Shown here piece after piece: positions 28,451-46,910 of a stretch of 64,000 bases of DNA. Numbering within the stretch: the stretch's first letter is position 1; every line of letters begins with the position of its first letter. The notes beneath the pieces are model-generated. The model had not been told where the DNA came from. It saw only the letters and a program-made list of their open reading frames with translations, and did not search any database. A program made the translations under genes and the position numbers. The DNA lies in contig JAPDJW010000002.1 in assembly GCA_029258885.1 (NCBI GenBank), positions 515,168 through 579,167 of the forward strand, in the 5' to 3' direction. The stretch comes from Thermoproteota archaeon. Its GTDB lineage: Archaea; Thermoproteota; Thermoprotei; Thermofilales; B9-G17.

Positions 28451-29011
28451 ATGAATTCTAGGGGATACATGAAAACTTTAACTAGGAGGCTAAATGATGC
28501 AAGAAGAAAAATTCGTGAAGAGATAGAGAGATTAGCTAAGAAGATAGGTGATACGTGCATAATAGTCGCCTTGCTAGGAGCTGGAGGAAGAGGTATAGAG
28601 GAAAGGAGACGGATAAAGCTACACCTTGAGAAGATGAATATAATAACCCTAATACCTGAGGATGATATTCCAGAAGAATTGTCTCCAAGTCTCTTAGAGG
28701 AGGCCATTTTAACGAAGTCTGATATCGACTTAATATTTGTTAATGTAGAATCATGGGGTACGGCAACTGAATTTGCCCAGTTTCACGATAAGCATGAGAT
28801 AGCATATAAGCTTAGGGTGCTTGTTCCTGCCGAGTATCATCCTATATACGGTAGAGAGGGAGGATATTTGACGGATCTATACCTTACACATTTAACACTA
28901 TATGGACACGTATATGCATATGGCAACGGAGAGCGTTTTCCTAAACCGGAGAAGATAATATTAACTATAGCGATGAGATTTAAGGAGCTGAAAGCTTTAG
29001 GTAAAATATAA
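28451..29011 (+). CDS. Hypothetical protein, Rossmann-like (nucleoside 2-deoxyribosyltransferase / SLOG / TIR-like superfamily?)
   Basis: 'CIIVALLGAGGRG' followed by 'SDIDLIFVNVESWGTATEFAQF', which resembles the D/GT..E motif of NDT/LOG-like folds. The family call is tentative. Confidence 0.3.
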   Translation: MNSRGYMKTLTRRLNDARRKIREEIERLAKKIGDTCIIVALLGAGGRGIEERRRIKLHLEKMNIITLIPEDDIPEELSPSLLEEAILTKSDIDLIFVNVESWGTATEFAQFHDKHEIAYKLRVLVPAEYHPIYGREGGYLTDLYLTHLTLYGHVYAYGNGERFPKPEKIILTIAMRFKELKALGKI

Positions 29012-29065
29012 TTTATCAGATAAAGAAATATATATCTGATAAACGAATATAAATATGGGGGACTT

Positions 29066-29344
29066 ATGGAGGCTGTTCGTAGGAAGCTTAAGATGTATAG
29101 GGCTCTGGATAACGAGCATAGGTTGAGAATAGTGTTAACATTGGCCAGTAGGCCTGGTTTATCGTTTAACGAGTTAGCTGGAGAGCTTGGATTGGAGAGA
29201 GGTCTTCTGGCGTATCATTTAGCGGTTCTTAAGAATGCGGGTTTAGTGGAGCTGAAGTATGAGAGGAGGAGTAAGAAGCTTACAAAATACTATTTGACGG
29301 AGGATGGGGTTAAAGTATTAAGGGAGCTAGGTTTAATCCAGTGA
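29066..29344 (+). CDS. ArsR family wHTH transcriptional regulator
   Basis: 'YRALDNEHRLRIVLTLASRPGLSFNELAGELGLERGLLAYHLAVLKNAGLV'. Confidence 0.8.
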   Translation: MEAVRRKLKMYRALDNEHRLRIVLTLASRPGLSFNELAGELGLERGLLAYHLAVLKNAGLVELKYERRSKKLTKYYLTEDGVKVLRELGLIQ

Positions 29345-29417
29345 AACATAATAGATGGAACCTGTCAGTAAAGCTAGGGGCTAATGTAGGCTATCTAAAT
29401 TAAGGTTAACGGCGTTA

Positions 29418-30776
29418 TTACTCGGGTTTTAGTAGCCACTTCTTTATGGTTCCTATCCATTCGGCCTTATAGCGTGCTATTACCTTATTATTTTTCCGAT
29501 TAAAGTTTGTCTGGTTTTGACTCATACCACTATGTGCATAAAAGTTCCTTATTTCATAGCCACGAAACTCCTTTCCCGTAAGTTTAGAAGTCTGCTCTCT
29601 CACGTCTCTCTCTAAGAAATACGTTAAAATCTTCTGCCCAAGCTTCTCATATAGTTCCTTAAATACCTCCTCTATGTATCCAAGCTCAGGCTCTCTCCCA
29701 TCTATCTTCTCCCTCCAGAATCTCGCTATGCTTTCAAGTAGTGCTGCTGAATACAGGATATTAGCAATCACCTTACTATTAAGAGGTATCCTCTCAATGA
29801 ACAGCTTGTTACCCTCAATTCTAGTCTCGGTTCTCTCCAAGAGGATACGTATTAATTCCTTAGTTTTCGACAGCGTATTCATACTGGTATTCATATCCTC
29901 TTCCTCGAAATGAATCAATTTATCATGGAAGAATGCGAGTGGTATATTGTATTTAATAGCGTTAAAGGCAGGCTTAAGCTTCCTCCACAATCTATCTACT
30001 AAATCCCTCAGCTCAACATATTGTTTTAAATCTCTAACCTCGTTCATCACCTTCTCCTTTTCCTCCTTACTCCCTGCACCAAATATCATGTCCGCCTTTA
30101 CCCTACCTTTAAAGGGTAGCTCAAAGAAAGCCTTAACATCAACCTCATGAGAATAAATAGCAGCCGACTTTACACCACCAACCACAGGGCTCGAAACGTG
30201 GAAATACACCTTCTTATCGTATTCCCCATAAACAATATTCCGCAGCTTCTCAAAGACAATTAAAGCCCTCAGCGCCTCCACCAGAGCCGACACATATATA
30301 TTATGTCCAATAGAGATATCCGCGTGAACCTCAGAGTATCCTCCCCTCATCACCCTATCGGTAAGAGCAATAAACATCTCAGCAACCACATTATCATAAG
30401 ACACATTAAAAACCATCCTACTACCTTCCCTCAGGCTATACTCTCCAATAGAACTTACAACCTCAGACGAATCCTTACATATCTTCTCCCAGAAAACTTT
30501 CTCCAAAAGCTTCCTCCTCAACTCCACTCTATTTCTAACCAGCTCCTCTACCTCATTAATAGAATAATTTTTCCTTAAAGCCAAGAGACTTTCAGGCATA
30601 AAAACTAAAAGATCCACCTCACAGCCTTTATCAGAAAAATAGTTATAAAGCGCTTGAAAAGGCGTATAAGACCGATAAATACTACCCCTTTCTCCTATAA
30701 TTTTATAGTCAACCTCATCATAGCCTTCTAGCTTACCTAATACTCCAATTACCAGAATCCTAGACATACCTCCCAC
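29418..30776 (-). CDS. csx1: Csx1-family CARF-HEPN ribonuclease
   Basis: N-terminus 'RILVIGVLGKLEGYDEVDYKI' is typical of Csx1. C-terminal HEPN 'RNFYAHSG' (R-x4-H). 452 aa. Confidence 0.7.
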   Translation of the reverse strand: MGGMSRILVIGVLGKLEGYDEVDYKIIGERGSIYRSYTPFQALYNYFSDKGCEVDLLVFMPESLLALRKNYSINEVEELVRNRVELRRKLLEKVFWEKICKDSSEVVSSIGEYSLREGSRMVFNVSYDNVVAEMFIALTDRVMRGGYSEVHADISIGHNIYVSALVEALRALIVFEKLRNIVYGEYDKKVYFHVSSPVVGGVKSAAIYSHEVDVKAFFELPFKGRVKADMIFGAGSKEEKEKVMNEVRDLKQYVELRDLVDRLWRKLKPAFNAIKYNIPLAFFHDKLIHFEEEDMNTSMNTLSKTKELIRILLERTETRIEGNKLFIERIPLNSKVIANILYSAALLESIARFWREKIDGREPELGYIEEVFKELYEKLGQKILTYFLERDVREQTSKLTGKEFRGYEIRNFYAHSGMSQNQTNFNRKNNKVIARYKAEWIGTIKKWLLKPE

Positions 30777-31526: not shown

Positions 31527-34500
31527 CTCTCAATTCTCTTTTTTGAGAGTATTTCTGTAGCGCATGGTTAGAAGGGAGGGATATAGGTATAATTCAAACT
31601 GGAGGGGTGGGCTCTCAATTCTCTTTTTTAGAGTATTTCTGTAGCTCAAAAGAGAAGTCTTAATTCAGGAGCTTAAGGAACTCTAAATCCTTCTTCTCTC
31701 AATTCTCTTTTTTGAGAGTATTTCTGTAGCCTAACTGTGTTAAGATTTTAACGATTAGAGGCAAGGCTCTCTCCTCTCAATTCTCTTTTTTGAGAGTATT
31801 TCTGTAGCAGTTCTGGAGAAGGCGACCTGTCTACTTTGTTTACTTGGGCTTTCTCTCAATTCTCTTTTTTGAGAGTATTTCTGTAGCAGGCTTGAGGAAA
31901 AGGGTTGGATACTACATAAGGTGATAACTCTCAATTCTCTTTTTTGAGAGTATTTCTGTAGCTTCAAATAGAGGATTGGCTTTACGACAGAGAAATCGAG
32001 GAAATCTCTCAATTCTCTTTTTTGAGAGTATTTCTGTAGCAAAGATGTAGTCGAGAATAGATATATGAGAGAAAAATATGCGACTCTCAATTCTCTTTTT
32101 TGAGAGTATTTCTGTAGCAAGCCTGTTTTTCACACCGACAGCCCCGTGGCTGTAAAGAGCTCTCAATTCTCTTTTTTGAGAGTATTTCTGTAGCTGCAGT
32201 GGTGTTTGCGTATGTTATGTATCAGGCGTATATGGCCTCTCAATTCTCTTTTTTGAGAGTATTTCTGTAGCGCTTATGATGAAATAGATAAAGACGGGCC
32301 TAAATGCATAATCTCTCAATTCTCTTTTTTGAGAGTATTTCTGTAGCAGATAAGAGAATTCTGATGCTGAGAAATGAGATTATCATCTCTCAATTCTCTT
32401 TTTTGAGAGTATTTCTGTAGCCAGCAAAATTATTAGTTTTTCTAATTGGGGTTAAAAATGGCCTCTCAATTCTCTTTTTTGAGAGTATTTCTGTAGCAAG
32501 AAGAGAAGGAGACTGGTGGTGGCAAACCAACAGGTACACCTCTCAATTCTCTTTTTTGAGAGTATTTCTGTAGCATTTATGACAGAGACTTTAGTTACAC
32601 TGTCTCCAGAACAACCTCTCAATTCTCTTTTTTGAGAGTATTTCTGTAGCGTTACAGTAATGCTTGTGTATACAGACTTCACATAATTGCCTCTCAATTC
32701 TCTTTTTTGAGAGTATTTCTGTAGCTCAGAAAAAAGGAGAAAAAAGATACATACCTTTCAAAATTGACTCTCAATTCTCTTTTTTGAGAGTATTTCTGTA
32801 GCAGTTAAGAGAAAAGTATGGAGTGGCCACATGGAAACTAATTCCTCTCAATTCTCTTTTTTGAGAGTATTTCTGTAGCTATGGAGCTGTGAACCCGTGG
32901 GATGGCGTAGGATCCGCTACCTCTCAATTCTCTTTTTTGAGAGTATTTCTGTAGCAAAAGTATATAGCATTCACTACAGAGGAATGGGAAAAGTATCTCT
33001 CAATTCTCTTTTTTGAGAGTATTTCTGTAGCACGCCGCCATAACCAACAAGGAGTGGCGTGATGTGGTTATTGACTCTCAATTCTCTTTTTTGAGAGTAT
33101 TTCTGTAGCGAGCTAAAGGAAAAGGAGTTTACAGCCTATGACGTATCAGCTCTCAATTCTCTTTTTTGAGAGTATTTCTGTAGCATAATAAATGTATCCT
33201 ACAGGTATGATTCCTCCACTGACTCCTCTCAATTCTCTTTTTTGAGAGTATTTCTGTAGCGCAAGTTACACTATGCAATTCTCCATGAGCATAAGGCTAA
33301 GACTCTCAATTCTCTTTTTTGAGAGTATTTCTGTAGCCCCTGAGTATCGGGGGCTGGAGTTAATAGGCTTCCTTACTGTTCTCTCAATTCTCTTTTTTGA
33401 GAGTATTTCTGTAGCCAAGAGGATAGTTAAAGCTGGTATCCATCCATTAGAGAAGAGCTCTCAATTCTCTTTTTTGAGAGTATTTCTGTAGCGTGTATGT
33501 ATGAAGGATGTAATTGAAAGATTAAAGAAATTCTCTCAATTCTCTTTTTTGAGAGTATTTCTGTAGCCATGGAATTACGACTGTACACGTAAAGCTTTCA
33601 TTGAGATACGCTCTCAATTCTCTTTTTTGAGAGTATTTCTGTAGCAATAACATATAGGAAATTTGAGGAAATTCAGAAATTACCTAACTCTCAATTCTCT
33701 TTTTTGAGAGTATTTCTGTAGCCCAGATAATGCAAAGTACTTCCTTCGAAGATATTTCACAAACCTCTCAATTCTCTTTTTTGAGAGTATTTCTGTAGCA
33801 TAAAACTGAAAAGAAAATAGCCAATTACAATAATAAGATAACTCTCAATTCTCTTTTTTGAGAGTATTTCTGTAGCCCCGTATTAAAATTGCTTGAAGAA
33901 AAATATAATTTAAGATTTCTCTCAATTCTCTTTTTTGAGAGTATTTCTGTAGCTTAAAGATGAAATTGAAGCAAGAACAAAAGCCAATCAAAAGATCTCT
34001 CAATTCTCTTTTTTGAGAGTATTTCTGTAGCGAAGCTAATATAGTCTTTATAAAGCTCCTAGGATTTCTTAGCCTCTCAATTCTCTTTTTTGAGAGTATT
34101 TCTGTAGCGAATTGAATTTGAATTTGGAATACATAGGTTGGGTATAAACCTCTCAATTCTCTTTTTTGAGAGTATTTCTGTAGCTATCGTTCGGTTTAGA
34201 ATTTGAGTTTGGCATCCACAGATTAGGAACTCTCAATTCTCTTTTTTGAGAGTATTTCTGTAGCGCGACCACTATGCTGCACTCTCAGACAGTGTACACG
34301 GCACACTGGCTCTCAATTCTCTTTTTTGAGAGTATTTCTGTAGCAAAATTATTCATCATAAAATGCTTGAAAATATTCTTAGCGACTTACTCTCAATTCT
34401 CTTTTTTGAGAGTATTTCTGTAGCGCAGGAAGAGAAACGAGAAGATTGATGTTCTCCGTGAAGTATTGGACTCTCAATTCTCTTTTTTGAGAGTATTTCT

Positions 34501-34973
34501 GTAGCTTGGAAAGGATAGGCTCTACTAGTGTTCATTTAGACGGTAATCTCTCAATTCTCTTTTTTGAGAGTATTTCTGTAGCACACAATATAATATGTAT
34601 AGAGTGTCCAGAGAACTAGAAAGAACAATACTCTCAATTCTCTTTTTTGAGAGTATTTCTGTAGCCCAATTTTAAAGATACTTGAGGAAAAATATAATTT
34701 AAGATTTCTCTCAATTCTCTTTTTTGAGAGTATTTCTGTAGCTAAGCAATAGATTTGTAGCGAAAATAAACCAGCTTATAATTAAATCTCTCAATTCTCT
34801 TTTTTGAGAGTATTTCTGTAGCTGGCTGTGAACGGCAGGGTGGTTGAGCCTGAGTACTGGAACGCTCTCAATTCTCTTTTTTGAGAGTATTTCTGTAGCG
34901 TTTTTGTAGGAGTATAGGCGGTGAGGTTAAGGAGAAAGCTCTCAATTCTCTTTTTTGAGAGTATTTCTGTAGC
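31527..34973 (-). CRISPR. CRISPR array 1: 45 repeats of 35 nt, 44 spacers (39-50 nt)
   Basis: The + strand repeat is CTCTCAATTCTCTTTTTTGAGAGTATTTCTGTAGC (first copy 31527..31561, last 34939..34973). The reverse complement GCTACAGAAATACTCTCAAAAAAGAGAATTGAGAG ends in a handle-like ATTGAGAG. The AT-rich leader is on the right flank. The only degenerate copy (1-nt deletion, 31612..31645) is at the far left, so the array is read on the minus strand. Confidence 0.98.
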
Positions 34974-35372
34974 TGTTTTTGTTGTGTTTATATTTTGTCT
35001 CTTTTTGTATTTATGCGTTTCGGTGTTTTAGCAAAACTGCATTCTACGTTTAGCCCTATTTAAAGGGGTATATATACAAATATTTTTCAACTATATAAAA
35101 TCGATGGATAAAATATATAAGCTTGAATTTTTGGCAGCGGATCTTTTTCTCTTTTTAGAAATGATCTTATTGCTATAATTATGAAATTATTAATGTATGC
35201 TGGGGAATATGGTATATTATTTTTAATATTTTTATCTACTTATTAAAAATTTATTTTTGAAAATATTTTTGGAATGTTTTATCATAGTGATTTTTCATGA
35301 AAAGAGAAATAAATCATATATAAAGGGGGTCAATGATTATAAGCCGTAAAATTGCCAAATGTTCAATTTGGT
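34974..35372 (-). promoter_or_regulatory. CRISPR leader of array 1 (inverted duplicate of leader 2)
   Basis: AT-rich ~400 bp abutting the last repeat. Its reverse complement aligns by eye with 47501..47898, near-identical over the ~170 nt next to the repeats (including TTTGTATATATACCCCTTTAAATAGGGC) and over a distal ~75-nt block. Confidence 0.8.
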
Positions 35373-35406
35373 TAATGTTATATTTTTGTTTGCTGTTTTA
35401 TTGTTT

Positions 35407-36453
35407 ATGGAGTTTAGGGAGCTTGTTGGTAGGTTTAGGTGGCGTAGTTTCGAGGATTATTTGGGTGAGGAGGATTCTGTTCTTGCTGAGGATGTTAGGT
35501 TTTTCCGTAGGGTTAGGGGTGAGCTTAGGCGTTTTGTTGAGGGTTTGAGGGGTTTTAGGGATAGGCTTAGGCGTATCGATCTGGGTAGGATTGATGTTTT
35601 TAGGTCTCTCCTGTATGAGGGTCGTGTCTGTGGTGTTGATGGTACTATTGCTGTCTATCCTACTCCCATAGGCGTTAAGTGTAGGATTGGTGTTATTGCT
35701 GTTAACTATGCTGGCGGTAGGCTGGAGAAGGTTGTTTATGTTAGTGATGCAAACTTGATTGATGAGGAGTTGAGGAGGGTTGATGAGCTTCTCTCCTCCC
35801 TTGAGAGAGTTGTCCGTTTCTCCAGGCTCCTCTATAGGACTATTATGCTGTATGAGGAGAGGAGGATTGCCCTTGAGAGAGATGAGGATTGGAGGATTGT
35901 TCATGGACCATTGATTCCTCTCGAGTTTAGGCTTGGTAGGCTTGGTGTTGAGGGCGTTCTTGAAGCCTGTCTTGAGCTTGGCGCTAAGCTTATCGATGAT
36001 GGCCATGTGATTGGTGTTCTTTCATCCACTAATAGGCTTAGGATTGCGAGTTTAGGCTATATCCTTAATCCTGGTGAATACCTGTATGTGGGTGAGCTCG
36101 GCCGGATTATGGAGGCTGAGAAGAGGAGGCTTACGGCTGAGGAGGAGTCGCTTGTGGACGACTTCATATCCAAGTATGGCTCTAAAGTAGCCTTGGGTAT
36201 ATATAGGGTTGGGGCTAGAAGCTTCGTTTTTGAGGCTAGGAAAGATTTCTTCGATAATGCTGCACACCTTATAATTGCCGACTCACTGAATAATAGGTTT
36301 AAGGGTTTTCCCCTGCTCCTCGACTATGCGGATTCTATGTGTAGGACTCTGCTTAACAGCAGCGATTTTGAGAGGAAGATTGAGAACATGTATCTCATCG
36401 AGGAAGGGGAGGAAGGCCTATTATCCTTCGACGAGAGGAGGCTTAGAGGCTGA
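35407..36453 (+). CDS. NurA-like nuclease (divergent)
   Basis: 'RVCGVDGTIAVYP' (NurA 'aiDGs'), 'WRIVHGPLIP' (position of 'lmDGsL'), 'GFPLLLDYADSMC' (position of 'GYPfpL..AH'). I prefer the ATG at 35407 because the track start at 35359 lies inside the duplicated leader. Confidence 0.5.
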   Translation: MEFRELVGRFRWRSFEDYLGEEDSVLAEDVRFFRRVRGELRRFVEGLRGFRDRLRRIDLGRIDVFRSLLYEGRVCGVDGTIAVYPTPIGVKCRIGVIAVNYAGGRLEKVVYVSDANLIDEELRRVDELLSSLERVVRFSRLLYRTIMLYEERRIALERDEDWRIVHGPLIPLEFRLGRLGVEGVLEACLELGAKLIDDGHVIGVLSSTNRLRIASLGYILNPGEYLYVGELGRIMEAEKRRLTAEEESLVDDFISKYGSKVALGIYRVGARSFVFEARKDFFDNAAHLIIADSLNNRFKGFPLLLDYADSMCRTLLNSSDFERKIENMYLIEEGEEGLLSFDERRLRG

Positions 36454-36472
36454 ATTCATGTAGCTAAGGTCT

Positions 36473-37417
36473 CTAGGAGTTTTCAAGGGTATTCTTAGCC
36501 CTTATATTGATGGGTGCTTCTTGCTGTTTTTGAATGATGTGTAGCACTATTGCGGATGCTAGGAATAAGATACCTATGACGCCTGCATTTAATCCCGCCA
36601 TAGCGTATTCCAGTATGTGTGCATAGGATTTCTCATACCATCGGAGCTCTATGAATAGTTGAACTTTAATGTCTACGGGTTTTAGGTAGCTCCTATTCAT
36701 CGATATCAATACTTTTAGCGTCGGCTCATTCAGCTCCATTTTCTCTACAACGTAGTATAGGTTTGTATTGTATTTCTCCCTCGGTACGGTGAACGTGAAT
36801 ATGTATAGTGATTTTCCTGTTCCATTAAAGTATGATTTAAACGGTAAGCCTGCCCTCCATTTCTCGAAGTTTTGTTCATCTAAGATGTATAGGTTGAATT
36901 TCTGTCCGTTCATCTCCTCAGCCCTTCCCGAAATCACTATTGAGGTTTTAGGGGGAAATGTTAGCGGCGTTTTTGAGGCGTATGCTGAATTATTGTATAC
37001 TGTAAGCGTATCTGTAAGGAATTCTTCTGTAATGTTTTCTAGAGCCATGTTTACTATCGTCATCTTCAGGCCCCTACCTAATTCGGAGTAGTTTATGGGA
37101 AAGGAGAAGATGTATCCGGAGACGTTCTCGGCCTTCACATAGGAGTCTATGTAGAGGCTGAAGGATTCCCTAACATCAGGGTATTCGTCGAGTACGCCGA
37201 TGCAGCCGAATACAGTTAAATTTCTCCTATTAGCAAGGGGTAATTGTAAGGTATAGGATATGGTATCACTGTATGCCTCGTGGATAGTTATGGTGCTATC
37301 CTTTAAGATTACGGCCTTAGGGCTCCACTCCTCGTAGGTAAATGGAATTAAAGCCACTACTAAGCTTAAGAATATAAGGGTTAATCCTATTAATCCTATG
37401 AATTCGGTAAACTTCAC
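36473..37417 (-). CDS. Membrane-anchored protein (N- and C-terminal TM helices, large external domain)
   Basis: 314-aa ORF. N-terminal 'IGLIGLTLIFLSLVVALIPF', C-terminal 'GLNAGVIGILFLASAIVLHII', several N-x-S/T sequons. GTG start. Confidence 0.55.
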   Translation of the reverse strand: MKFTEFIGLIGLTLIFLSLVVALIPFTYEEWSPKAVILKDSTITIHEAYSDTISYTLQLPLANRRNLTVFGCIGVLDEYPDVRESFSLYIDSYVKAENVSGYIFSFPINYSELGRGLKMTIVNMALENITEEFLTDTLTVYNNSAYASKTPLTFPPKTSIVISGRAEEMNGQKFNLYILDEQNFEKWRAGLPFKSYFNGTGKSLYIFTFTVPREKYNTNLYYVVEKMELNEPTLKVLISMNRSYLKPVDIKVQLFIELRWYEKSYAHILEYAMAGLNAGVIGILFLASAIVLHIIQKQQEAPINIRAKNTLENS

Positions 37418-37604
37418 GAGTAAATATATCTGTTAATCCTTTATTAAGTTTTCAGTTTCACAGTTAAATCTATGCTTTAAGATTATGAGTGACTAGGTAC
37501 AGCCTATTATCAGCAGCTTATAAGGCGTAATCCTTTAGATTTTAGCTGAAGGAATAGTTAGTTTTATTAAATCAGGGTTTTAATATTATATTCGAGGGGT
37601 TTTT

Positions 37605-39203
37605 GTGTCTAGTAGGCCGATTGGCTATGTGGCTTTCGATACTAAGGTTGATACCCAGTATTCTAGCCTCTCCGCTATAAACGTGTTTATGGATAATATT
37701 GATAAGATCCATAGGGGCAAGTATGTCCGCATAGACTCTACTGAGGGTAGGAGGTTTGTTGGGCAGGTTGTAGCTGGCCCATTCTATATGCCTGAGGGGC
37801 TTAGCCCCAGCTCTCACGTTGCTCAAGCTTTTACGATTAGGGGTGAGAGGTTTAAGTCTCTTCCACCCTACTACGCCGTCTTCTACGTTGAGATACTTGG
37901 TGAGTGGGAGAAGGAGTTTAAGTCCACCTATACTAAGCCTAGGCCTAAGTCCCCCGTATACGAGATGGGTGCTCTCGAGATATCGGATATCCTCGGCCTA
38001 AGCAAGGGTGACATGGTTTTAGGCCATCATATCGGGTATAAGGGCGTTAAGATTAAGCTTCCATCAAGCCACATGGACGTTTTACCTAGGAACGTCGGCA
38101 TATTCGGAACCGTTGGCAGCGGGAAGACTAATACAGCACAGGTTCTCATAGAGGAGGCCGCGAGACACAACTGGAGTGTTATAGTGATAGATATTGAGGG
38201 CGAATACACCTACATGGACTATCCGAACGACGACCCCGAGATGTATGAAGTACTGAAGAGCATATACGGCATCGAGCCGTTTAAAATAGAGAATTTCCAC
38301 GTATTCGTCCCCGTAGGTAGGGATTCTACGCGTGGAAGCGAGGCAGTTAGATTCGGTATACCGTTCTTCCAGATAAACCCGTACGTGTTGGCCGAGATTA
38401 TCAGGGCTACCGAGCCACAGCAGAGGTATCTGAGCATAGCTATAGGTGAGCTTTTAAGCCTAAGGGAGGGAAGCGGAGCCGAGGAGGCTACGGAGTTCGA
38501 GGAGTTCGCCTTCGGAGGCTCCAAGGAGGTTGAGCCTATAACTCTCGAGGAGGTAATTAACCATATTGAAAGTAAGATTAGCTCTACTAGGGATAGGGGT
38601 GTCGTCTCCGCCCTAACCGCGCTATCGACGAAGCTTAGGAGGCTTGACCTTTACGGCGTTATTGATGAGGGCAAGCCTATAGACTTCAGCTCTATACTTA
38701 AGCCAGGCCACGTTTCGGTCCTAGATGTAAGCGATGTTGAAGATAACGTTAGGAATATATGTATAGCCTGGCTCCTCGACACAGTGTTTAACCTTAAGCT
38801 TAGGGATGTCGAGAGGAAGCTGCCTAAAATCATGATCGTAATTGAGGAGGCACACGCCTTCGTAAGTAAGGAGGTTAGGGATAAGATGGAGGCTACGATC
38901 GACCTGCTTAAGAGGATAGCTAGGAGGGGTAGGAAGAGGTGGATATCCCTCGTATTCATATCCCAGCAGCCCGGCCACCTCCCGCCGGAGATATTCGAGC
39001 TATGTAACACTAGAATTATACATCAGCTTAGAAGCGAGATGAATATTAAGGCTATTAGGGAGACCACCGGAGCATTAACGAGGGAGCTTGCCCGGAATAT
39101 AGTCAACCTATCGAAGGGTGAGGCTATAGTCACATCCCCCGTACTAAGGTATCCAGTACTATGTAAGATAAGGCCAGCCGCTACCAAGAGGTTTAAACAC
39201 TAG
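37605..39203 (+). CDS. herA: HerA-family (FtsK/HerA superfamily, DUF87) ATPase
   Basis: HAS-barrel-like N-terminus 'IGYVAFD...GKYVRIDSTEGRRFVGQVV', Walker A 'GIFGTVGSGKTNTAQ', 'VIVIDIEGEY', Walker B 'IMIVIEEAHAFV', 'LVFISQQPGHLPPEIFELCNTRIIHQLR'. Confidence 0.85.
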   Translation: MSSRPIGYVAFDTKVDTQYSSLSAINVFMDNIDKIHRGKYVRIDSTEGRRFVGQVVAGPFYMPEGLSPSSHVAQAFTIRGERFKSLPPYYAVFYVEILGEWEKEFKSTYTKPRPKSPVYEMGALEISDILGLSKGDMVLGHHIGYKGVKIKLPSSHMDVLPRNVGIFGTVGSGKTNTAQVLIEEAARHNWSVIVIDIEGEYTYMDYPNDDPEMYEVLKSIYGIEPFKIENFHVFVPVGRDSTRGSEAVRFGIPFFQINPYVLAEIIRATEPQQRYLSIAIGELLSLREGSGAEEATEFEEFAFGGSKEVEPITLEEVINHIESKISSTRDRGVVSALTALSTKLRRLDLYGVIDEGKPIDFSSILKPGHVSVLDVSDVEDNVRNICIAWLLDTVFNLKLRDVERKLPKIMIVIEEAHAFVSKEVRDKMEATIDLLKRIARRGRKRWISLVFISQQPGHLPPEIFELCNTRIIHQLRSEMNIKAIRETTGALTRELARNIVNLSKGEAIVTSPVLRYPVLCKIRPAATKRFKH

Positions 39204-39846: not shown

Positions 39847-40548
39847 ATGTATAGTTTAGAGCAATGCAGGATTTTAGGTTTACTGGTAATGTTTAGAAAT
39901 ATCCACCTAGCGGACATATCATTCTACCTGGACGCTAGGATGGATGATATTCTCACCTACTGTAGAAGCCTGCGGGGCTACGGCTTCCTAAAGCTCCATG
40001 AGAATTCAGCATTGATTACCGAGGCCGGAATACGTGCATGCCTAGGGGATCTCGCATTCAGTGGACGGAGATGGTTTATTCTAGTGGTGGATCCATCTGG
40101 TGCGCCGAGGGAGATGGATTTCGTGAACGTTAGGGGACAAGCATACGTAACTCCCTTTACCCTTCAGATGCTCGAGCTAATTAAGCTGCTCTATCGGGAG
40201 ATCTTCGTAGTCTCATCAAAGGCCTGCAGTATATGGATTAGGATGGCTGAGGATAGGATGCCGTACCGCAGAATTATAGACGTCATGAGGACTATAGAGG
40301 ATATTCAAGATAAACTATCTAGGCTGAGCTATCCCCGTTCGAGCAGATACGTTAAAGCTATCATATCCAGGCTTAACAGGTGTAGGAGGGAGCTTGAGAA
40401 GGCCGCTAGGATAGCTAAGCTTGATTTCAGGCTAGTAGGGCTAAATAGATCCTTCTCGAGGGATCCGCTAAGCTATTCTAGGGAGCTGTACGGGGTAGCC
40501 TTATCGTGTAGGGATAAGGTTCTACGTAGTGCTGAGGGTCTTAGATAG
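39847..40548 (+). CDS. wHTH domain protein, putative regulator (paralog of the gene on the opposite strand)
   Basis: 'LEQCRILGLLVMFRNIHLADISFYLDARMDDILTYCRSLRGYGFLKL' wHTH. The downstream region aligns by eye with the 39193..39846 product ('QAYVTP' vs 'NVYVAP'). Confidence 0.55.
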   Translation: MYSLEQCRILGLLVMFRNIHLADISFYLDARMDDILTYCRSLRGYGFLKLHENSALITEAGIRACLGDLAFSGRRWFILVVDPSGAPREMDFVNVRGQAYVTPFTLQMLELIKLLYREIFVVSSKACSIWIRMAEDRMPYRRIIDVMRTIEDIQDKLSRLSYPRSSRYVKAIISRLNRCRRELEKAARIAKLDFRLVGLNRSFSRDPLSYSRELYGVALSCRDKVLRSAEGLR

Positions 40549-40819
40549 CTATATCCTCCTCCTCATGTATCTCGTAGTTGTGTATTATCGTGAGGACTTT
40601 AGCTTCGTCTCGTCCACATATTGGTATGGCTATAACCCTAGCTTTACTTGGACCTATTATCCTCCTTATTTCGCTCATTATCCCCTTTATTTCGGCGGCT
40701 GAAGCCTCGAATAGGAATGCGCTGTACTGTATCCTATCTCCGCCCATATCCTTAAGGTATCTCCTAACCTCATTCCTAATGCTGTCATCTGATATGTCGT
40801 AGACTATAATGTACTTCAA
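40541..40819 (-). CDS. cas2: Cas2
   Basis: 'MKYIIVYDISDDSIRNEVRRYLKDMGGDRIQYSAFLFE' is a typical Cas2 N-terminal ferredoxin-fold signature. 92 aa. Confidence 0.85.
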   Translation of the reverse strand: MKYIIVYDISDDSIRNEVRRYLKDMGGDRIQYSAFLFEASAAEIKGIMSEIRRIIGPSKARVIAIPICGRDEAKVLTIIHNYEIHEEEDIAI

Positions 40820-40870: not shown

Positions 40871-41335
40871 ATGACGCGTATAATTAAGATGTTTCTCGAG
40901 GATAACGTGTTGTCGGTTTTAATAGATTTAGTTGCTCTGGATGAAACGTTTGGAGAACGCTCACGCGAAGTACTGGGTAAAGTTGTGTCTAGAGTGGAGG
41001 CCATCCTTCTAGCTCATGGAGGCAGAAACCTAGAGAGGGAGGAAGGTCTGACTTACGTTAAGGTTAAATGTAAAATTAATCCGAGGAGCTACGGCTACGT
41101 CGAGAGGAGCCTCACATCCCTAGAGGATGAAGTTAGGAGGAAGCTGGGGCTGGTTGAACACCTTGTTGCAGTATTTAGGAGTACCTCCAAGCTGTCTCCG
41201 TATCTCGTGAGCTTCTATGAGGTTTCCCCCGCGCTCCCTAGGAGCCCGGAGGGCTATAGAGTTACTTCACGGATAGCCAGAATCCTATCGAGGGAGAGGA
41301 GAGTTATCTGGGCGAGTACGGCCTCGGAGTCCTAG
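40871..41335 (+). CDS. Hypothetical ORF; its last ~40 codons appear to be the start of the Argonaute N-domain
   Basis: 154-aa ORF. From about 'LSPYLVSFYEVSPALPRSPEGYRV' it resembles the first strands of long pAgo N-domains. An in-frame GTG is present at 41207. Confidence 0.4.
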   Translation: MTRIIKMFLEDNVLSVLIDLVALDETFGERSREVLGKVVSRVEAILLAHGGRNLEREEGLTYVKVKCKINPRSYGYVERSLTSLEDEVRRKLGLVEHLVAVFRSTSKLSPYLVSFYEVSPALPRSPEGYRVTSRIARILSRERRVIWASTASES

Positions 41336-42120
41336 GCTATCTCGTTAAGCCGGGAGTTTCTATTGAGGATAGCTTTAAGGTATACGTTGGAGATAGGGAG
41401 TACACCTTAAATAAGCTGCGCGATAGGCGTCTCAACTTTAACCTTAGAGGCGATAGGGAGTTCTTCAAAAAGATCGTTGATAGGGGTATTAGAAGGAAGT
41501 TCCGTGAGCTAGGGTTTAGGGTTCGCGGATACATAGTGGTCTATAGCCAGCCCATATACTCATATGAGTATGTGGATGTTTGGCCAGCATGTGAGTTCCA
41601 GACTATAATTGATTCGGATGGCACGCTATCCCTCGCCTTATCGCCGAGACATATCATCGAGTCGATGAGGAGCATAATGGAGGACTACGAGAGCTTAGAG
41701 GAGCTGGTTAAAAGGAGGCGGGAGCTAGTGGGATGCAGTGTTAGAAGTATCGTTGATGGACAAGTATACAGGATAGTTTCGGTGCTCGATAAGAGGGCGA
41801 GGGATTCATTTGAGGAGCTCAACGGTTCAAGCCTATGCGAGTTCTATAGGGACTACAATATCGACCCAATGGAGCCAGCTATAGTTATCGAGAGGTATGG
41901 TTTCAGGCTCCTCCACGCTCCCTCACTTCTAAGGAGGATATATAGTCCAGCTGAACTGGCAGGTTTAGGCGTAGCTAGGGAGGTTATGAGAGCCATAAAG
42001 CTCAACCTGCTAAGGTGGAGCGATACCTCACGCAACATTGTTAGAACGTTATCTCCCATAGAGATAGATGGAATCGAGATAAGGTTCTCCGATCAGCCCG
42101 AGGTTCTCGAGGTGGCGTAG
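41260..42120 (+). CDS. Argonaute N-terminal half (N-L1-PAZ-L2), frame-disrupted near 41263; no canonical start before GTG 41536
   Basis: The frame is open from 41260. L1-like 'VDVWPACEFQTIIDSDGTLSLALSPRHIIESMRSIMEDY'. PAZ-like 'QVYRIVSVLDKRARDSFEELNGSSLCEFYRDYNIDPMEPAIVIERYGFRLLHAPSLLRRIYSPAEL'. It resembles PfAgo-type long pAgos as I remember that sequence. Confidence 0.6.
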   Translation, partial: SYFTDSQNPIEGEESYLGEYGLGVLGYLVKPGVSIEDSFKVYVGDREYTLNKLRDRRLNFNLRGDREFFKKIVDRGIRRKFRELGFRVRGYIVVYSQPIYSYEYVDVWPACEFQTIIDSDGTLSLALSPRHIIESMRSIMEDYESLEELVKRRRELVGCSVRSIVDGQVYRIVSVLDKRARDSFEELNGSSLCEFYRDYNIDPMEPAIVIERYGFRLLHAPSLLRRIYSPAELAGLGVAREVMRAIKLNLLRWSDTSRNIVRTLSPIEIDGIEIRFSDQPEVLEVA

Positions 42121-42121: not shown

Positions 42122-43069
42122 ATCTACAGGGAGTTCTGTGATTGGGGCTACATCCTCGCTCCACGTAATGGGGAGATTATAGCTAAGGGACAGATTGAAG
42201 CGGGCAGATTTAAGCCCAAGGATAGGATAGTTCTCTCGGGCTCCGGCTCAATAAATGTCGATGCTGTGGCGAATATCGTCGGTGCGGGAGGCTCAATTTT
42301 GGTTGAGAAGGGATCTATACAGCTAGACTACTTCAACTCTATGTTCTCACGTAACCTGCTGGCTCAGCTCGCGTCTGTGGAGAATTCTGAGGTTAGGAGC
42401 AGAGTTGCCTCCTCTATATTGGAGGCTGCTGCATATAATAAGATTAGGGTTCTGGAGATACTGGAGGTTCCCGAGGACGTTAGGAGCAGGGTTGTCGGGG
42501 AGATTAAGGGGCTTATATCGATGCTTAAAGGAACTGTTCTAAGCAGATTGATGGGCGTTGAAGCTAGAATAACCAAGCTCTACTTCGAGGCTCTAAGATA
42601 CGTAATTCCCGTGGAGTATGGTTTTAAGGCTAGAACGCGTAGACCCCCTAAGGACTACTTTAGCGCTGCACTAAGCTATGGGAACATGCTCCTCTACAGA
42701 CACGTACTTAAGGAAATACTTAGGTTCGGCCTGGATCCTAGGCTAAGCTACCTCCATACGCCCTATAGGCATAGGCCATCGCTAGCGCTCGATATAGCCG
42801 AGGAGTTTAGGCAGGCCGTGGTTGATCTAGCAGTTATTCCGCTCTACACGTCGAGGTCTATGAGCATTAAGGGGGACTTCCAGGTTTTCGGCTCATCCAT
42901 ATACCTCAATAAGCGTGGAAACTTTAAGGTTAGGAGGAGCTTCCACCACAGGATGAACCTTAGAGTTAAGGGGAGGAGCCTCGCCGACGCAGTAAGAGGT
43001 CAGATTAGGAAGCTGCTGGAGTTCATCCACGGCGATAGGAGCGAATATACTCCGTTCAGAATTCAATAG
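42122..43069 (+). CDS. cas1: Cas1 (canonical catalytic motifs); conserved N-terminus lacks a start codon (track start GTG 42266)
   Basis: 'RIVLSGSGSINVDAVANIVGAGGSILV', 'GVEARITKLYFEAL', 'GLDPRLSYLHTPYRHRPSLALDIAEEFRQAVVD' (E, H, D/E motifs). Confidence 0.85.
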   Translation: MYREFCDWGYILAPRNGEIIAKGQIEAGRFKPKDRIVLSGSGSINVDAVANIVGAGGSILVEKGSIQLDYFNSMFSRNLLAQLASVENSEVRSRVASSILEAAAYNKIRVLEILEVPEDVRSRVVGEIKGLISMLKGTVLSRLMGVEARITKLYFEALRYVIPVEYGFKARTRRPPKDYFSAALSYGNMLLYRHVLKEILRFGLDPRLSYLHTPYRHRPSLALDIAEEFRQAVVDLAVIPLYTSRSMSIKGDFQVFGSSIYLNKRGNFKVRRSFHHRMNLRVKGRSLADAVRGQIRKLLEFIHGDRSEYTPFRIQ

Positions 43070-43313
43070 TATCTATTATAATGATATTTTCATAGCATCT
43101 CCTACATGGAAATATTATATCGACCCTCCCAGCCCCCTCCGCAACGATTCTCCTAATGTCGTTAATCATCCTCTCGGCGTTTTTCTCGTCCAGCTCTACC
43201 TCATAAACGCTGTACTCCCTGAAAACGCCGCCGTAGTCCTTAAGCCTATTCCTTAATCTATCCCTAAGCCTATCATATCCAACTGGGATATCGAAGACGA
43301 CTATTATCTTCAA
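43056..43313 (-). CDS. cas2: Cas2 (second copy)
   Basis: 'MKIIVVFDIPVGYDRLRDRLRNRLKDYGGVFREYSVYEVEL'. 4-nt overlap with the upstream cas1-like gene. Confidence 0.8.
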   Translation of the reverse strand: MKIIVVFDIPVGYDRLRDRLRNRLKDYGGVFREYSVYEVELDEKNAERMINDIRRIVAEGAGRVDIIFPCRRCYENIIIIDTIEF

Positions 43314-44179
43314 TAAACCGCCTCCTTAAACGGTATAAAGCCTCCAGCCGGATTCATCAGATAGGATGCAAGCCCCTTCGCAGCGGCCTTTATGTGTTTA
43401 AATAGAGGCATCCTCCTACCATCAGTATCCTCAACGTTCCTCTCAACGATATTCCTAAGATACTTCAGGAGAAGCCTCCTCCCCTCATAGCTACCTAAGT
43501 CGATGGATGAAAGGATGTCGGAACCAACTTCAACGAGGCAACGCCAGACAGTCGATGGCTCAAATACTAGAAGGAAATCCCTTGTAAGCGATCTCCTATT
43601 TACGAAGCCTATGTGTGGGGTTAAGCCAGCCCTAACCACGGCGTCCAGACATTCTGCTTCAATAAAATAGCTGAGATACTGGATAACTGACTCGATTAGG
43701 CTAAGTTTTACTCCAAGATATCTTGATAAAAGCTTAAGCGCATTAACCCTAACTTCCTCCAGCTCCCCCTCGGCCCTGAATGGAAGGTTAAGTCTCGAGA
43801 AAAAGGCGCAGAGGTTATGGTTGAATGCCTCCCTAATGCATGAAGCTATCTCCTCAGCTCTCGAGGTAGAGTACTGGGTTAATATCAGCTCAACGTGCTT
43901 CCTTTGAAGCATCCCCGTAAACCACGCTATCCTATCCTTAAATACCAGAGCTATGGTTACGTTATCCTCTGAAGCCAGCGATAGAGCCGATGTACTTATC
44001 CTCCTACATCCATCCAATACTAGGAGGTAGGCAGTTAAGGAGGCTATCTCACGTCTACGATCTCCAGCCTCAACTACGAAGCGCCTACTCCTACGGCCTA
44101 AATTAAAGCCATTGTACGCTATCCAGTAGCTCCTCCTCAACCAATCCCCTTGATCATAGTATATAGTTTCCTTATCCAC
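43310..44179 (-). CDS. cas1: Cas1-like protein, divergent (conserved His replaced)
   Basis: 'GLTPHIGFVNRRSLTRDFLLVFEPSTV' aligns with the Cas1 'GldP.lGflH....sLa.DlmEefR' block but has Asn in place of His. 289 aa. Confidence 0.65.
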   Translation of the reverse strand: MDKETIYYDQGDWLRRSYWIAYNGFNLGRRSRRFVVEAGDRRREIASLTAYLLVLDGCRRISTSALSLASEDNVTIALVFKDRIAWFTGMLQRKHVELILTQYSTSRAEEIASCIREAFNHNLCAFFSRLNLPFRAEGELEEVRVNALKLLSRYLGVKLSLIESVIQYLSYFIEAECLDAVVRAGLTPHIGFVNRRSLTRDFLLVFEPSTVWRCLVEVGSDILSSIDLGSYEGRRLLLKYLRNIVERNVEDTDGRRMPLFKHIKAAAKGLASYLMNPAGGFIPFKEAVY

Positions 44180-44967
44180 GGCCTAGGCTCAACCCTACCC
44201 TCCCTAATAATGATCACGCCCCGCTCCTCAAGCTCTTTAATTCTCTCGTACCCTATAATATCCTTTAAATCGGCCAGTGATATGTGTGGGAAAATCCTAT
44301 CTATGAGGGAGAGGAATTCCTCCTTTACAGTTATCGGCAGCAGGGGGAGTGCCACAACCTCCCTGAAGGACTCATGTATATAATATACCTTATCCGCTCC
44401 CATAACCATTGAGATAATGGTGGCGAATGAGGTTTCAGGCTTAAAGCCAGCAGTAGCATTAACGTAGACCCTGTATCCAGCATTCTTCTTACTCTTAACG
44501 ACCCCAGCAATTTTATCTATTAAATTGGATAAAGCCTCATCGAAGAGCGAGGCGCCGAGCCCGAAGCCCCTAACCCTAACGGGCTCATTAACGTAGTACC
44601 CCCTAGACTTAAGGTGTTCATAAACTATCCTTCCACATAGATATCCGGTGCCGGTATCAGTGGTATATAGCCCTATCTCAATATCCTCAATCCTCGATGG
44701 ACCGTAGAGGTCGGTGAACCTGTAGAATGCGTTAAGCTCAGCACTAGCACTATAGGGATCAGAGTTCACATACTCCAGAAGCCTATCGAAAACCTTGGAA
44801 CCCCTATGGGCGGAAGCCTCAGCCTTCTTCTGATCATCATGGTCGGGTGGAAGCCTACCCCACGAACTTATTTTAAGCTCCTCAGCCTCATCCTTAAAAG
44901 TCCTTGCAAAGTTTAGGAGGATTGCAGTTCCAACCGTAACCACGTGAAATACCTTCATAGATACCAC
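44137..44967 (-). CDS. CARF-domain protein of the APE2256 type with probable C-terminal wHTH
   Basis: 'FHVVTVGTAILLNFA', 'SAELNAFY', 'YVNATAGFKPETS' (CARF signature). C-terminal 'ISLADLKDIIGYERIKELEERGVIIIREGRV'. Confidence 0.6.
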   Translation of the reverse strand: MVSMKVFHVVTVGTAILLNFARTFKDEAEELKISSWGRLPPDHDDQKKAEASAHRGSKVFDRLLEYVNSDPYSASAELNAFYRFTDLYGPSRIEDIEIGLYTTDTGTGYLCGRIVYEHLKSRGYYVNEPVRVRGFGLGASLFDEALSNLIDKIAGVVKSKKNAGYRVYVNATAGFKPETSFATIISMVMGADKVYYIHESFREVVALPLLPITVKEEFLSLIDRIFPHISLADLKDIIGYERIKELEERGVIIIREGRVEPRPWIRKLYTMIKGIG

Positions 44968-44997: not shown

Positions 44998-45711
44998 ATG
45001 ATGCTACGTGGATACAGTCGCCTAGCAGCCTCAGGCATAAATAGAATGGTTAGAGTAACGGATGTCACGTTATACCTCTTCTGTCCGCGGAAACTCTACC
45101 TAGTGGGCTTCCTAGGGATAAGAGGCAGGCCGACTAGGGAGAGCATTATGGGTAAATTGGCCCACTACGCATACCTAAGGGCAAGCATCCTAAAGATAAC
45201 CGAGAATAGGGTGGAGGAGGAGAGCGTGAATATAGCTAGAGAGGCAGTCGAGAAGAAGCTTACGGAGGGGCTAAGCGATACGGAGGTCAAGGAGATAGTT
45301 GTAAAAACCTTAAGGTTTAGGGCTGAAAACCCGATTACGGGTGGGGTTGAGGTCGAGAAGTACGTTGAATCGGTAAGGCTGGGGTTAAACGGACAGATAG
45401 ACCTAATGGAGGAACATACGCCAGTGGAGGTAAAGTACAAGTCCAGAGCTGAATACAGGGATCTAATACAGCTAACACTCTACACACTACTACTCGAGGA
45501 CGTCTACGGGTGGGATATAGATTACGGCTACATCGATCTACTTAAGGCTTCAAGAAGGTTAAGAATTGAAGTAAATAATAGGCTTAGAGGTGATGCGCTT
45601 AAGCTTAGGGATAAAGTGCAGGAGACAATACTAATGGGGACGTATCCGCCAGCTAGGGATAAGTGTAGGGGATGCGACCTAAAGATAGAGTGTAGATCCC
45701 TCTTCCACTAG
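44998..45711 (+). CDS. cas4: Cas4 (RecB-like nuclease with Fe-S cysteines)
   Basis: N-terminal Cys in 'LYLFCPRKLYL', 'IDLMEEHTPVEVKYK' (D..EVK), 'QLTLYTLLLE' (QxxxY), C-terminal 'CRGCDLKIEC'. Confidence 0.85.
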   Translation: MMLRGYSRLAASGINRMVRVTDVTLYLFCPRKLYLVGFLGIRGRPTRESIMGKLAHYAYLRASILKITENRVEEESVNIAREAVEKKLTEGLSDTEVKEIVVKTLRFRAENPITGGVEVEKYVESVRLGLNGQIDLMEEHTPVEVKYKSRAEYRDLIQLTLYTLLLEDVYGWDIDYGYIDLLKASRRLRIEVNNRLRGDALKLRDKVQETILMGTYPPARDKCRGCDLKIECRSLFH

Positions 45712-46910
45712 AGGAACCAGAGCCTAGAATAATACTCCTCCGACGGCGATACACCCAACCTAAGGAAGCTACATATCCTATGGGCATACAAAGTCGTTAT
45801 TGGAAGCCTAGTTGAAGCAAACGCTGAAGCCCAGTGTAGCTCGCTCAACCAGTACACATCCCTGGCAATATCATACATACTAACCTCCCAGTTAGATGCC
45901 TCAGCCAGCTCAACAACAACCGGCCTAACCAATCCAGACACATCAATATAGGGGTGCTCCGGGAAGCCTGAGGTAACCACAAGATACCTATATTTATCAA
46001 GCACATAGAACGTACCTTTCTCCGGATTAGTAACTCTTCTCCCAACCCTCCTGGTAACCCTAGGCACAGCCCTCTTCTTAACCTCAACAAAAACCCAGTT
46101 AGATGCAACGCCCTCATCAACAGCCGAGTCCATAACATCCCTAACCGCTTCAAGCTCAACATCAAAGGTAGAGCCATCCCTATGAACAACTATTAAATTA
46201 ACCCTACCAGCATGCCTATGAATAACGTCGAGAGCGAGCGTAAGCACATTCCTAATCGAATAGATAACCTCAACCCCGGGATTAAACTCGAAGCGCCAGT
46301 CGAAGAATATGCCCCCATCAAACACGAAGACTGTTACAACAACGTTGTTACCGACAGTATCCAAGCCAATATACGCATCACCTAAAAGCCTATCCCCCAA
46401 AACCCAAGGTATTCCCCCAGCCTTACAGTAGATAGACAGAGCTAAATTAAAGAGAACATAGGATTTACCCGCAAGCCTTCTAATAGTAGAGTATGTAACC
46501 ATTTGACTAGGAATCCCACGTAGAGCTAAAGCCTGCTTAATAGGAACATAGGGATCCTCCTCAAAACCCGGATAGTTTTCATCGGGAACAGCTACGATAG
46601 CTACATCAACATCCTCAATTGAATCGATGACATCAGCGTACCTATCATATGATTCAAAGAAGTACTCAACGTCCCCAACCCTACAGCCAAACCATCCAGT
46701 AAGACCTCCAAAACCCCTAACACCATAGATAAGGTTATCCATGAGGACACGAGAGTAGCTATACATTCCACGAGGACAGATAAAACAGAGCCTAACAGCA
46801 TCAGGACCGGAGAAAGGACCGAAGCCGAGTTTAAACCCCTCATAGGGGAAAATAGAGGTACCACTCCCAAACCTTAAAACAGGCCTAGAGAAGACGCCTC
46901 CCCTAACCAT
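45708..46910 (-). CDS. Argonaute MID-PIWI half (400 aa) with apparent DEDH catalytic tetrad
   Basis: MID pocket pattern 'PYVPIKQ...GIPSQMV...SIYCKAGGIPWVL'. PIWI 'AYIGLDTV' (D), 'GVEVIYSIRNVL' (E), 'LIVVHRDGS' (D), 'LPITTLYAHRICSF' (H). C-terminal 'RLWFL'. Confidence 0.8.
   Translation of the reverse strand: MVRGGVFSRPVLRFGSGTSIFPYEGFKLGFGPFSGPDAVRLCFICPRGMYSYSRVLMDNLIYGVRGFGGLTGWFGCRVGDVEYFFESYDRYADVIDSIEDVDVAIVAVPDENYPGFEEDPYVPIKQALALRGIPSQMVTYSTIRRLAGKSYVLFNLALSIYCKAGGIPWVLGDRLLGDAYIGLDTVGNNVVVTVFVFDGGIFFDWRFEFNPGVEVIYSIRNVLTLALDVIHRHAGRVNLIVVHRDGSTFDVELEAVRDVMDSAVDEGVASNWVFVEVKKRAVPRVTRRVGRRVTNPEKGTFYVLDKYRYLVVTSGFPEHPYIDVSGLVRPVVVELAEASNWEVSMYDIARDVYWLSELHWASAFASTRLPITTLYAHRICSFLRLGVSPSEEYYSRLWFL

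Follow-up and report, generated by a model that had tools for sequence, protein, structure and literature searches.

A predicted nuclease gene and a HerA-family ATPase gene lie beside a CRISPR leader in a 64,000-nucleotide stretch of a Thermoproteota archaeon (Thermofilales, B9-G17; GenBank assembly GCA_029258885.1, contig JAPDJW010000002.1, positions 515,168 to 579,167). The whole stretch is called the window below, and the first protein is called X. On the evidence of its predicted structure, X is a NurA-fold protein beyond the present sequence definition of the NurA family. A dedicated accessory or defence role is a sensible reading of the X-HerA pair. More specifically, X and HerA may form a defence-dedicated DNA-end-processing machine that feeds spacer acquisition and perhaps supplies PIWI guides; this reading is preferred here, but tentatively.

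An earlier sequence-only reading of this DNA had placed X, a membrane-protein gene and HerA at the positions listed in Table 1, and the calling of open reading frames (ORFs) agreed for all three. The longest ORF of X begins at an alternative ATG at 35359, as in the NCBI gene call (364 aa). That start was rejected: its 16 extra codons are hydrophobic, are missing from the homologues and lie within DNA conserved with leader 2.

X was first described as NurA-like. As a single sequence it matched no Pfam, NCBIfam or PADLOC model at E<=0.1. The hidden Markov model (HMM) of NurA, PF09376, was among the models without a match, an outcome that the sequence-only reading itself had named as counting against its assignment. 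No NurA chain was matched among PDB sequences by X or by its 33- and 59-sequence family profiles, and the matches to PPR, SecA and fluorescent proteins in these searches were dismissed as noise. PF09376 was reached weakly by three of the 59 distant members of the family, with a best value of 2.9e-5. The homologues of X comprised 35 clusters in a word-indexed search and 342 representative clusters in an exhaustive HMM search. Where these clusters were named at all, they were named "hypothetical protein", the names coming from metagenome-assembled genomes (MAGs). Family members were sought on PLSDB plasmids and in INPHARED phages, and none was found.

The structure of X was modelled with AlphaFold2 (predicted local distance difference test, pLDDT, 91.2; predicted template modelling score, pTM, 0.86). 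The model showed an RNase H/PIWI-like fold that is extended by helices at both termini, and NurA was the nearest structure. The top 10 Foldseek matches in the PDB were all NurA (E 1.5e-8 to 5.8e-5, template modelling (TM) score ~0.5). The best match was Sulfolobus solfataricus NurA (2ygk, E=1.5e-8); other top matches were the Thermococcus kodakarensis HerA-NurA complex (9x1n) and Pyrococcus furiosus NurA (3tai/3tal/3taz). After NurA, Argonaute PIWI domains and EndoV appeared from ~1e-4. The description as NurA-like therefore stands at the level of the fold and fails at the level of the HMM.

Conservation in X was counted over 33 close homologues, and a distant set of 59 members was also used. 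The motifs GVDGT, VHGPL and LLDYAD, quoted earlier from the sequence, are present and conserved across the 33 homologues. Among these, D78 and G79 of GVDGT, G167 of VHGPL, and Y307 and D309 of LLDYAD are invariant, as are E151, R152 and D292. Position 166 is His in 27 sequences, Gln in 5 and Asn in 1. In the predicted structure D78 lies in beta1, E151 stands at the end of a long helix, H166 closes beta4, and D292, Y307 and D309 are located in the C-terminal helices. Asp is found at the H166 position in 7 of the 59 distant members. The canonical catalytic set of NurA is an Asp in beta1, a Glu in a helix and an Asp after beta4, namely D58/E116/D133 in the S. solfataricus enzyme and D51/E105/D126 in the P. 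furiosus enzyme, and the latter has an extra His411, for which T. maritima NurA and TtAgo have an acidic residue (PMC3326311, PMC3300031). The residue correspondence was drawn from the secondary-structure register of X against these two reports. In this register X would keep the beta1 Asp and the helix Glu of housekeeping NurA; unlike that enzyme, it would have His or Gln at the beta4 Asp position, plus the invariant Asp292 and Asp309. The exchange of Asp and His positions suspected earlier is plausible and fits this pattern, judged by sequence register and predicted secondary structure. D78, E151, H166, D292 and D309 make up a candidate active site that could be mutated.

HerA, the cognate partner of X, was identified by sequence models. 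It matched Pfam DUF87 (PF01935; 4e-24, 86.4 bits, cut-off 23.2) and HerA_C (6e-11, 42 bits, cut-off 22), together with many PADLOC HerA models. The Walker A motif GTVGSGKTN occupies residues 168-176 and the Walker B motif IVIEEAH residues 411-417. Over 40 HerA sequences, G168-T177, E414-H417 and R440-R445 (RRGRKR, the Arg-finger region) are invariant. In the AlphaFold2 model (pLDDT 91, pTM 0.88), residues 1-152 make up an N-terminal domain rich in beta structure. The model aligned along its whole length with 4d2i, the HerA of S. solfataricus (E=1e-31, TM 0.69/0.79). Further fold matches were the T. kodakarensis HerA-NurA complex (9x1m), Deinococcus radiodurans HerA, and the Sir2-, DUF4297- and Tdp-associated HerAs. 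The Pfam domains, the invariant Walker motifs and the full-length fold match agree with the HerA/FtsK-type ATPase named in the sequence-only reading. Membership of the MADS system (mad1-mad8) was considered and rejected: HerA gave a generic P-loop match to mad8 only, and X and 58 relatives matched no mad model.

Since X resembles NurA 2ygk/9x1n and HerA resembles 4d2i/9x1m, both partners match the two chains of one solved machine. In archaeal HerA-NurA, a nuclease dimer with an RNase H fold caps a hexamer that translocates DNA at the expense of ATP; the machine loads on free DNA ends and degrades or resects the DNA. Housekeeping HerA-NurA (2ygk/4d2i, 3tai, 9x1m) gave the best fold matches of both X and HerA, and the window HerA keeps the HAS-barrel, the RecA-like core and the Walker motifs. 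The window pair differs from the housekeeping pair in its low identity (~12% for X, ~20% for HerA) and in lacking synteny with mre11-rad50. X is also smaller than P. furiosus NurA, with a reduced middle domain.

The pairing of X and HerA was investigated in related loci. Loci L001-L040 were scanned with the window proteins as queries, and later loci, up to L047, were taken from gene tables. The cognate HerA (E=1e-105 to 1e-190) adjoins X in 39 of the 40 scanned loci, and the contig of the 40th stops just after X. Adjacency and co-evolution extend to ~45 loci overall, and the pairing is obligatory. The neighbour-joining trees of X and HerA are congruent, and in them the window groups with L001, L004 and L007 in a single clade made up of Thermoprotei MAGs.

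X-HerA lies within cas1/cas2 adaptation cassettes in six Thermoprotei lineages (window, L001, L004, L007, L008 and L046), in line with the earlier placement of the window pair inside a CRISPR cassette. Arrays or array repeats were detected at all of these except L008, and X abuts the leader directly in the window, L001 and L004. The gene order is array, X, HerA, APE2256, ..., Cas6, ..., Cas2, ..., Cas1 in L001 and L004. It is ..., Cas1, Cas2, Cas1', PIWI, Cas6, X, HerA in L007 and L008, and Cas2, ..., Cas1, Cas2, Cas1', PIWI, X, HerA in L046. The cassette of L041 is syntenic with that of the window, but there the array directly follows the o39193-like gene and the X-HerA block is absent from the leader-proximal end; the block is therefore a variable accessory. 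Neither the window nor the relatives' gene tables, which carry Pfam annotation, showed Mre11 or Rad50 beside X-HerA, and the claim that the pair stands outside the mre11-rad50 context holds for the window and ~45 related loci.

A different context was found outside the Thermoprotei. Of 36 such loci, which belong to bacteria and other archaea, 35 have X-HerA beside a DNA methyltransferase, and no CRISPR array was detected within 10 kb. The commonest operon comprises a helix-turn-helix C-protein, a Dcm-type C5 methylase, X, HerA, a GHKL ATPase (HATPase_c_3 and HATPase_c), a protein of ~390 aa, HNH and Vsr. L009 is an example (Table 1), and the Dcm-type operon was further found in L010, L013, L015-L019, L022-L024, L027, L033 and L035, in many bacterial phyla and several archaea. 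One of these, L018, is from a cultured bacterium, Hydrotalea flava CCUG 51397. A second operon variant with an N6/N4 methylase was present in L032, L034, L036, L037, L039, L040, L042 and L043. X and the ~390-aa protein of these operons had no Pfam or PADLOC match. The same subfamilies are found in the operons and in the window (X 30-37% and HerA 40-45% identity), always adjacent and co-evolving; unlike the window pair, the operons carry a methylase and extra ATPase and nuclease genes and have no CRISPR nearby. A literature search found no paper on the C-protein/Dcm/X/HerA/GHKL/HNH/Vsr operon, and the methylase-linked X-HerA operons appear uncharacterised.

No Pfam, NCBIfam or PADLOC family was matched by the protein encoded between X and HerA. 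Its hydrophobic segments span about residues 3-26 and 270-298, it carries seven N-glycosylation sequons, and by its sequence it looks like an ordinary glycosylated archaeal surface protein. It had been described as bitopic; it is of membrane type, but it is not strictly bitopic, having two transmembrane segments, one at each end. No homologue of this ORF was found in the 40 related loci (L001-L040), and its recorded occurrences are confined to contigs encoding X, HerA and APE2256 with an identity of at least 90% to the window proteins. The X-membrane ORF-HerA arrangement repeats in two independent samples of the window lineage. Given these two samples and the identity of at least 90% throughout, the ORF is real but confined to its lineage. 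In the later, more distant loci L042, L043 and L046, the gene tables show X followed directly by HerA. A survey of the co-occurrence of the three genes had been proposed; in the related loci the X-HerA pair recurs and the membrane ORF does not, and the idea of a trio is not upheld. The membrane ORF is probably a lineage-specific passenger insertion, not a third component, and it may be ignored when the pair is studied.

The X-to-HerA region sits between two CRISPR arrays with a common 35-nt repeat. The repeat end, ATTGAGAG, is a typical 8-nt CRISPR RNA handle; array 1 carries it on the minus strand, array 2 on the plus strand. From these strands it follows that both arrays are transcribed outward from the central cassette and that their leaders face the cassette. 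The homology between leader 1 and leader 2 runs to ~35375, ~30 bp short of the X start codon, which agrees with the earlier statement that X lies directly against leader 1. A nearly identical block of ~75 bp, with a TATA-like sequence inside, was observed at the leader-distal ends (35300..35375 and ~47500..47575). Each time it lies 30-110 bp upstream of a divergent gene, which is X in the first case and a Zn-ribbon gene (46976..47386) in the second. The block may be a bidirectional promoter or regulatory site. In array 2, the six leader-proximal repeats (47899..48325) share three substitutions relative to the remaining repeats, which indicates that a variant repeat has spread at the end where spacers are acquired. 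An Rfam scan of the window found no known RNA.

Table 1. Coordinates of the CRISPR elements, the X-HerA region and the neighbouring cassette genes of the window, and of selected features in related loci
Feature	Sequence	Position	Strand	Remark
CRISPR array 1	window	31527..34973	-	44 identical 35-nt repeats, transcribed leftwards
Leader 1	window	34974..35375	-	homologous to leader 2 over ~400 bp, 82% mean column identity
X	window	35407..36453	+	348 aa; predicted NurA-fold (RNase H/PIWI-like) nuclease
Membrane/surface protein ORF	window	36473..37417	-	314 aa
HerA	window	37605..39203	+	532 aa; HerA-family hexameric ATPase/translocase
Cas2, first copy	window	40541..40819	-	Pfam CRISPR_Cas2 2e-17
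Cas1	window	42266..43069	+	Pfam Cas_Cas1 9.5e-46
Cas2, second copy	window	43056..43313	-	
Cas1', degenerate Cas1-like gene	window	43310..44179	-	Pfam 6e-9, N-terminal part only
Cas_APE2256	window	44137..44967	-	CARF protein; Pfam 8e-37
Cas4	window	44998..45711	+	
Short PIWI-only Argonaute	window	45708..46910	-	400 aa; conserved D..E..D..H-position motifs
Leader 2 and CRISPR array 2	window	47387..49011	+	repeats 47899..49011
Short PIWI (~400 aa)	L007	4256-5458		
Short PIWI (~400 aa)	L008	3385-4587		
Short PIWI (~400 aa)	L041	8050-9261		
Short PIWI (~400 aa)	L046	5041-6252		
Short PIWI (~400 aa)	L047	680-1891		
Methylase-linked operon	L009	2379-11086		C-protein, Dcm, X, HerA, GHKL ATPase, 399-aa protein, HNH, Vsr

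The other genes of the cassette were also annotated. The window cassette holds two Cas2 and two Cas1-like genes. The last 43 bp of the upstream APE2256 gene are shared with the 5' end of Cas1'; the APE2256-Cas1'-Cas2 unit is also present in L041, and Cas1'-Cas2 in L007, L008 and L046. APE2256 comes immediately after HerA in L001 and L004-L006; in the window it belongs to the same cassette but stands elsewhere. The window APE2256 protein falls into one 90% cluster with a protein of Thermofilum sp. ex4484_79, and on this ground the source archaeon is Thermofilum-like. The ORFs 40871..41335 and 41536..42120, which had no Pfam match, together match a single 380-422-aa protein encoded ahead of Cas1 in L001, L004, L007, L008, L041 and L046, and the gene appears to be split or frameshifted in the window.

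A short PIWI is encoded in the window cassette and in five others (Table 1), and L046 and L047 carry a co-directional PIWI-X-HerA gene string. The PIWI motifs IG[IL]D, VEV, HRDG and Y[AP]HR were aligned to CbAgo (6qzk) and are kept among homologues that are 40-48% identical. They fall at positions that we take to be catalytic from the CbAgo numbering. The motifs suggest that the short PIWI is an active slicer, a prediction that would make it unusual among short pAgos.

A type III module was observed in 18760..30776 of the window, with a Cas10 carrying HD (21588..24275), several RAMP proteins and an accompanying Csx1 (29418..30776). Two Csm6-HEPN/CARF proteins (49961..51445 and 55659..57035) flank two ABC-transporter genes.

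CRISPR-linked pairs of this kind have been reported before. Bernick 2012 (PMC3396285) described a nurA-csm6(APE2256)-herA cluster beside CRISPR arrays across the Thermoproteales, a paralogue apart from the repair copy, with APE2256 between nurA and herA in Pyrobaculum, and proposed an adaptation role for it. Vestergaard 2014 (PMC3973734) listed "Cas HerA" and "Cas NurA" in 14 cases, always together, with types I and III. The published cluster genes are PAE0122/PAE0128, Vdis_1157/1158, VMUT_1471 and Tagg_0814/0815. In Shah 2019 (PMC6546367), HerA and NurA are the "Type III coevolved" clusters 57 and 58. Liu et al. 2017 found that Csa3a, an activator of adaptation genes in Sulfolobus islandicus, binds a nurA-herA promoter, and RecBCD-like fragment production was suggested. 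The novelty implied by the sequence-only reading is thus removed, as the CRISPR-linked nurA-csm6-herA cluster and the adaptation hypothesis are already contained in PMC3396285, PMC3973734 and PMC6546367; its inference is sound but restates a published hypothesis.

The window pair resembles the published Cas NurA/HerA in lying beside a CRISPR array and cas cassette in Thermoprotei, in its link to APE2256 (called csm6 by Bernick) and in being distinct from the repair copy. The Pyrobaculum Cas-NurAs match Pfam NurA at 1e-7 to 1e-16 (PMC3396285), whereas X and its close homologues match nothing. The gene order also differs from the published nurA-csm6-herA, being X-HerA-APE2256 or dispersed; these distinctions are drawn from the published order and scores. 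Unlike the published pairs, the X-HerA family has other members that are methylase-linked. What is new is a NurA lineage that Pfam does not see and whose active site appears altered, together with the methylase-linked relatives of this lineage and the short PIWI that often accompanies it.

The role of the pair was considered on this basis. The fragment-generator role is favoured because of the position between the leader and cas1-cas2-cas4, the RecBCD precedent and the PIWI-X-HerA strings. By analogy with the solved complexes, a HerA hexamer would be capped by an X dimer and would thread and degrade DNA from free ends. In this archaeon and its Thermoprotei relatives, the pair would have been recruited into the adaptation cassette of CRISPR, at a place between leader and cas1-cas2-cas4. 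There X-HerA would cut foreign DNA that is linear or broken; Cas1-Cas2-Cas4 would use the fragments as prespacer substrates, and the co-encoded short PIWI might take them as guides. X-HerA would be the counterpart of the bacterial RecBCD/AddAB role, in which free-end DNA degradation supplies Cas1-Cas2 substrates in naive adaptation (PMC5587795). Unlike this likeness in proposed role, the protein families are unrelated, and the link is experimentally established for RecBCD and conjectural for X-HerA. The dedicated accessory module claimed earlier is consistent with the recurrent location in adaptation cassettes and with the lack of mre11-rad50 neighbours; its prespacer part is what we infer.

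Several points weigh against a role in adaptation. The link between the pair and spacer acquisition is itself one that we infer. HerA/NurA are classed as co-evolving with type III interference modules (Shah 2019, PMC6546367) and the tightest partner of the pair is the CARF protein APE2256, so signalling or interference is favoured over adaptation on these two counts. The nearest relatives of the pair are methyltransferase-linked, not CRISPR-linked, and an autonomous restriction-like role therefore fits the ancestry equally well. X and HerA are separate transcription units in the window because of the membrane ORF insertion: an antisense gene and 1.15 kb intervene, and there is no co-transcription. 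In L007 and L008 the two genes are convergent. By its sequence, X appears to have the canonical beta4 Asp of NurA replaced by His/Gln (H166), and its activity is therefore not guaranteed.

Among the other explanations, a type III signalling effector is possible but unlikely. APE2256 would sense cyclic oligoadenylate (cOA) made by the neighbouring Cas10 and would activate or recruit HerA-X to degrade DNA. The position of APE2256 right after HerA in L001 and L004-L006, and between nurA and herA in Pyrobaculum, fits this explanation, as do the Cas10 with HD, the RAMPs, Csx1 and the two Csm6-HEPN proteins of the window. It also agrees with the "Type III coevolved" listing of Shah 2019, and PDLC01055, the PADLOC model of that name, was the second-best PADLOC match of the window HerA (95 bits, partial coverage). 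However, APE2256 of the window lies 5 kb off HerA and overlaps the Cas1'/Cas2 operon instead. L007, L008 and L046 have X-HerA by PIWI, Cas6 and Cas1 with no adjacent CARF gene, and X and HerA have no recognisable cOA-binding domain. Autonomous innate defence deserves similar attention and is likewise improbable. Here a restriction-type motor-nuclease that has lost its methylase would be parked in a CRISPR island and attack linear viral DNA ends. The methyltransferase linkage of 35/36 non-Thermoprotei loci, often with C-protein, GHKL ATPase, HNH and Vsr, agrees with this. Stand-alone HerA-effector defences are also established, and Sir2-HerA, DUF4297-HerA and TdpAB are among the strong fold matches of the window HerA; they share with the pair a HerA hexamer and a neighbouring effector in a defence setting, but their effectors are Sir2, DUF4297/Cap4-like and TdpB, whereas the effector here is a NurA-fold nuclease. 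What speaks against autonomy is that X-HerA, in six lineages, consistently stands within the adaptation cassette or right at the leader and not just nearby; without a methylase, too, there is no obvious discrimination between self and non-self.

A housekeeping herA-nurA copy for double-strand-break repair, near CRISPR by chance, would have the same folds as the repair enzymes, but it is very improbable. mre11/rad50 are not beside the pair in the window or the annotated relatives, and X is invisible to Pfam NurA. HerA scored far under the NCBIfam equivalog cut-offs (109 vs 800 for HerA_Thermprot, NF040937; 84 vs 970 for helicase_HerA, NF040819). The closest relatives are in operons resembling restriction-modification systems, and the block is absent from the syntenic L041. 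Least credible of all is a membrane-anchored system of three components, with the membrane protein as tether or regulator of the other two. Its gene does lie between theirs, an arrangement seen again in independent samples from the window's own species-level lineage; against this stand its lack of homologues in L001-L040, its opposite strand, its look of a glycosylated surface protein and the direct X-HerA order in L042, L043 and L046. The DNA-end-processing machine feeding spacer acquisition thus remains the tentative preference. A doubtful but broader proposal joins it to the methylase-linked operons: X-HerA would be the restriction arm of an undescribed methylase-linked system captured by Thermoprotei cassettes, where with Cas1-Cas2-Cas4 and the mini-PIWI, taken to be catalytically intact, it would be dedicated to generating spacer and guide DNA.

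The pair bears on how archaea make prespacers, and HerA-NurA pairs linked to CRISPR have been on record since 2012. The pair described here gains a defined, high-confidence predicted structural identity and is tied to two further partners, the APE2256 CARF protein and a short PIWI with residues at the slicer positions. The same pair also forms the centre of a methylase-linked operon, widespread and without an entry in PADLOC, of which Hydrotalea flava is a directly testable carrier. This operon and the slicer-residue short PIWI are arguably more novel than the original finding. If X-HerA is a captured restriction arm, it would be an archaeal, immunity-dedicated counterpart of RecBCD.

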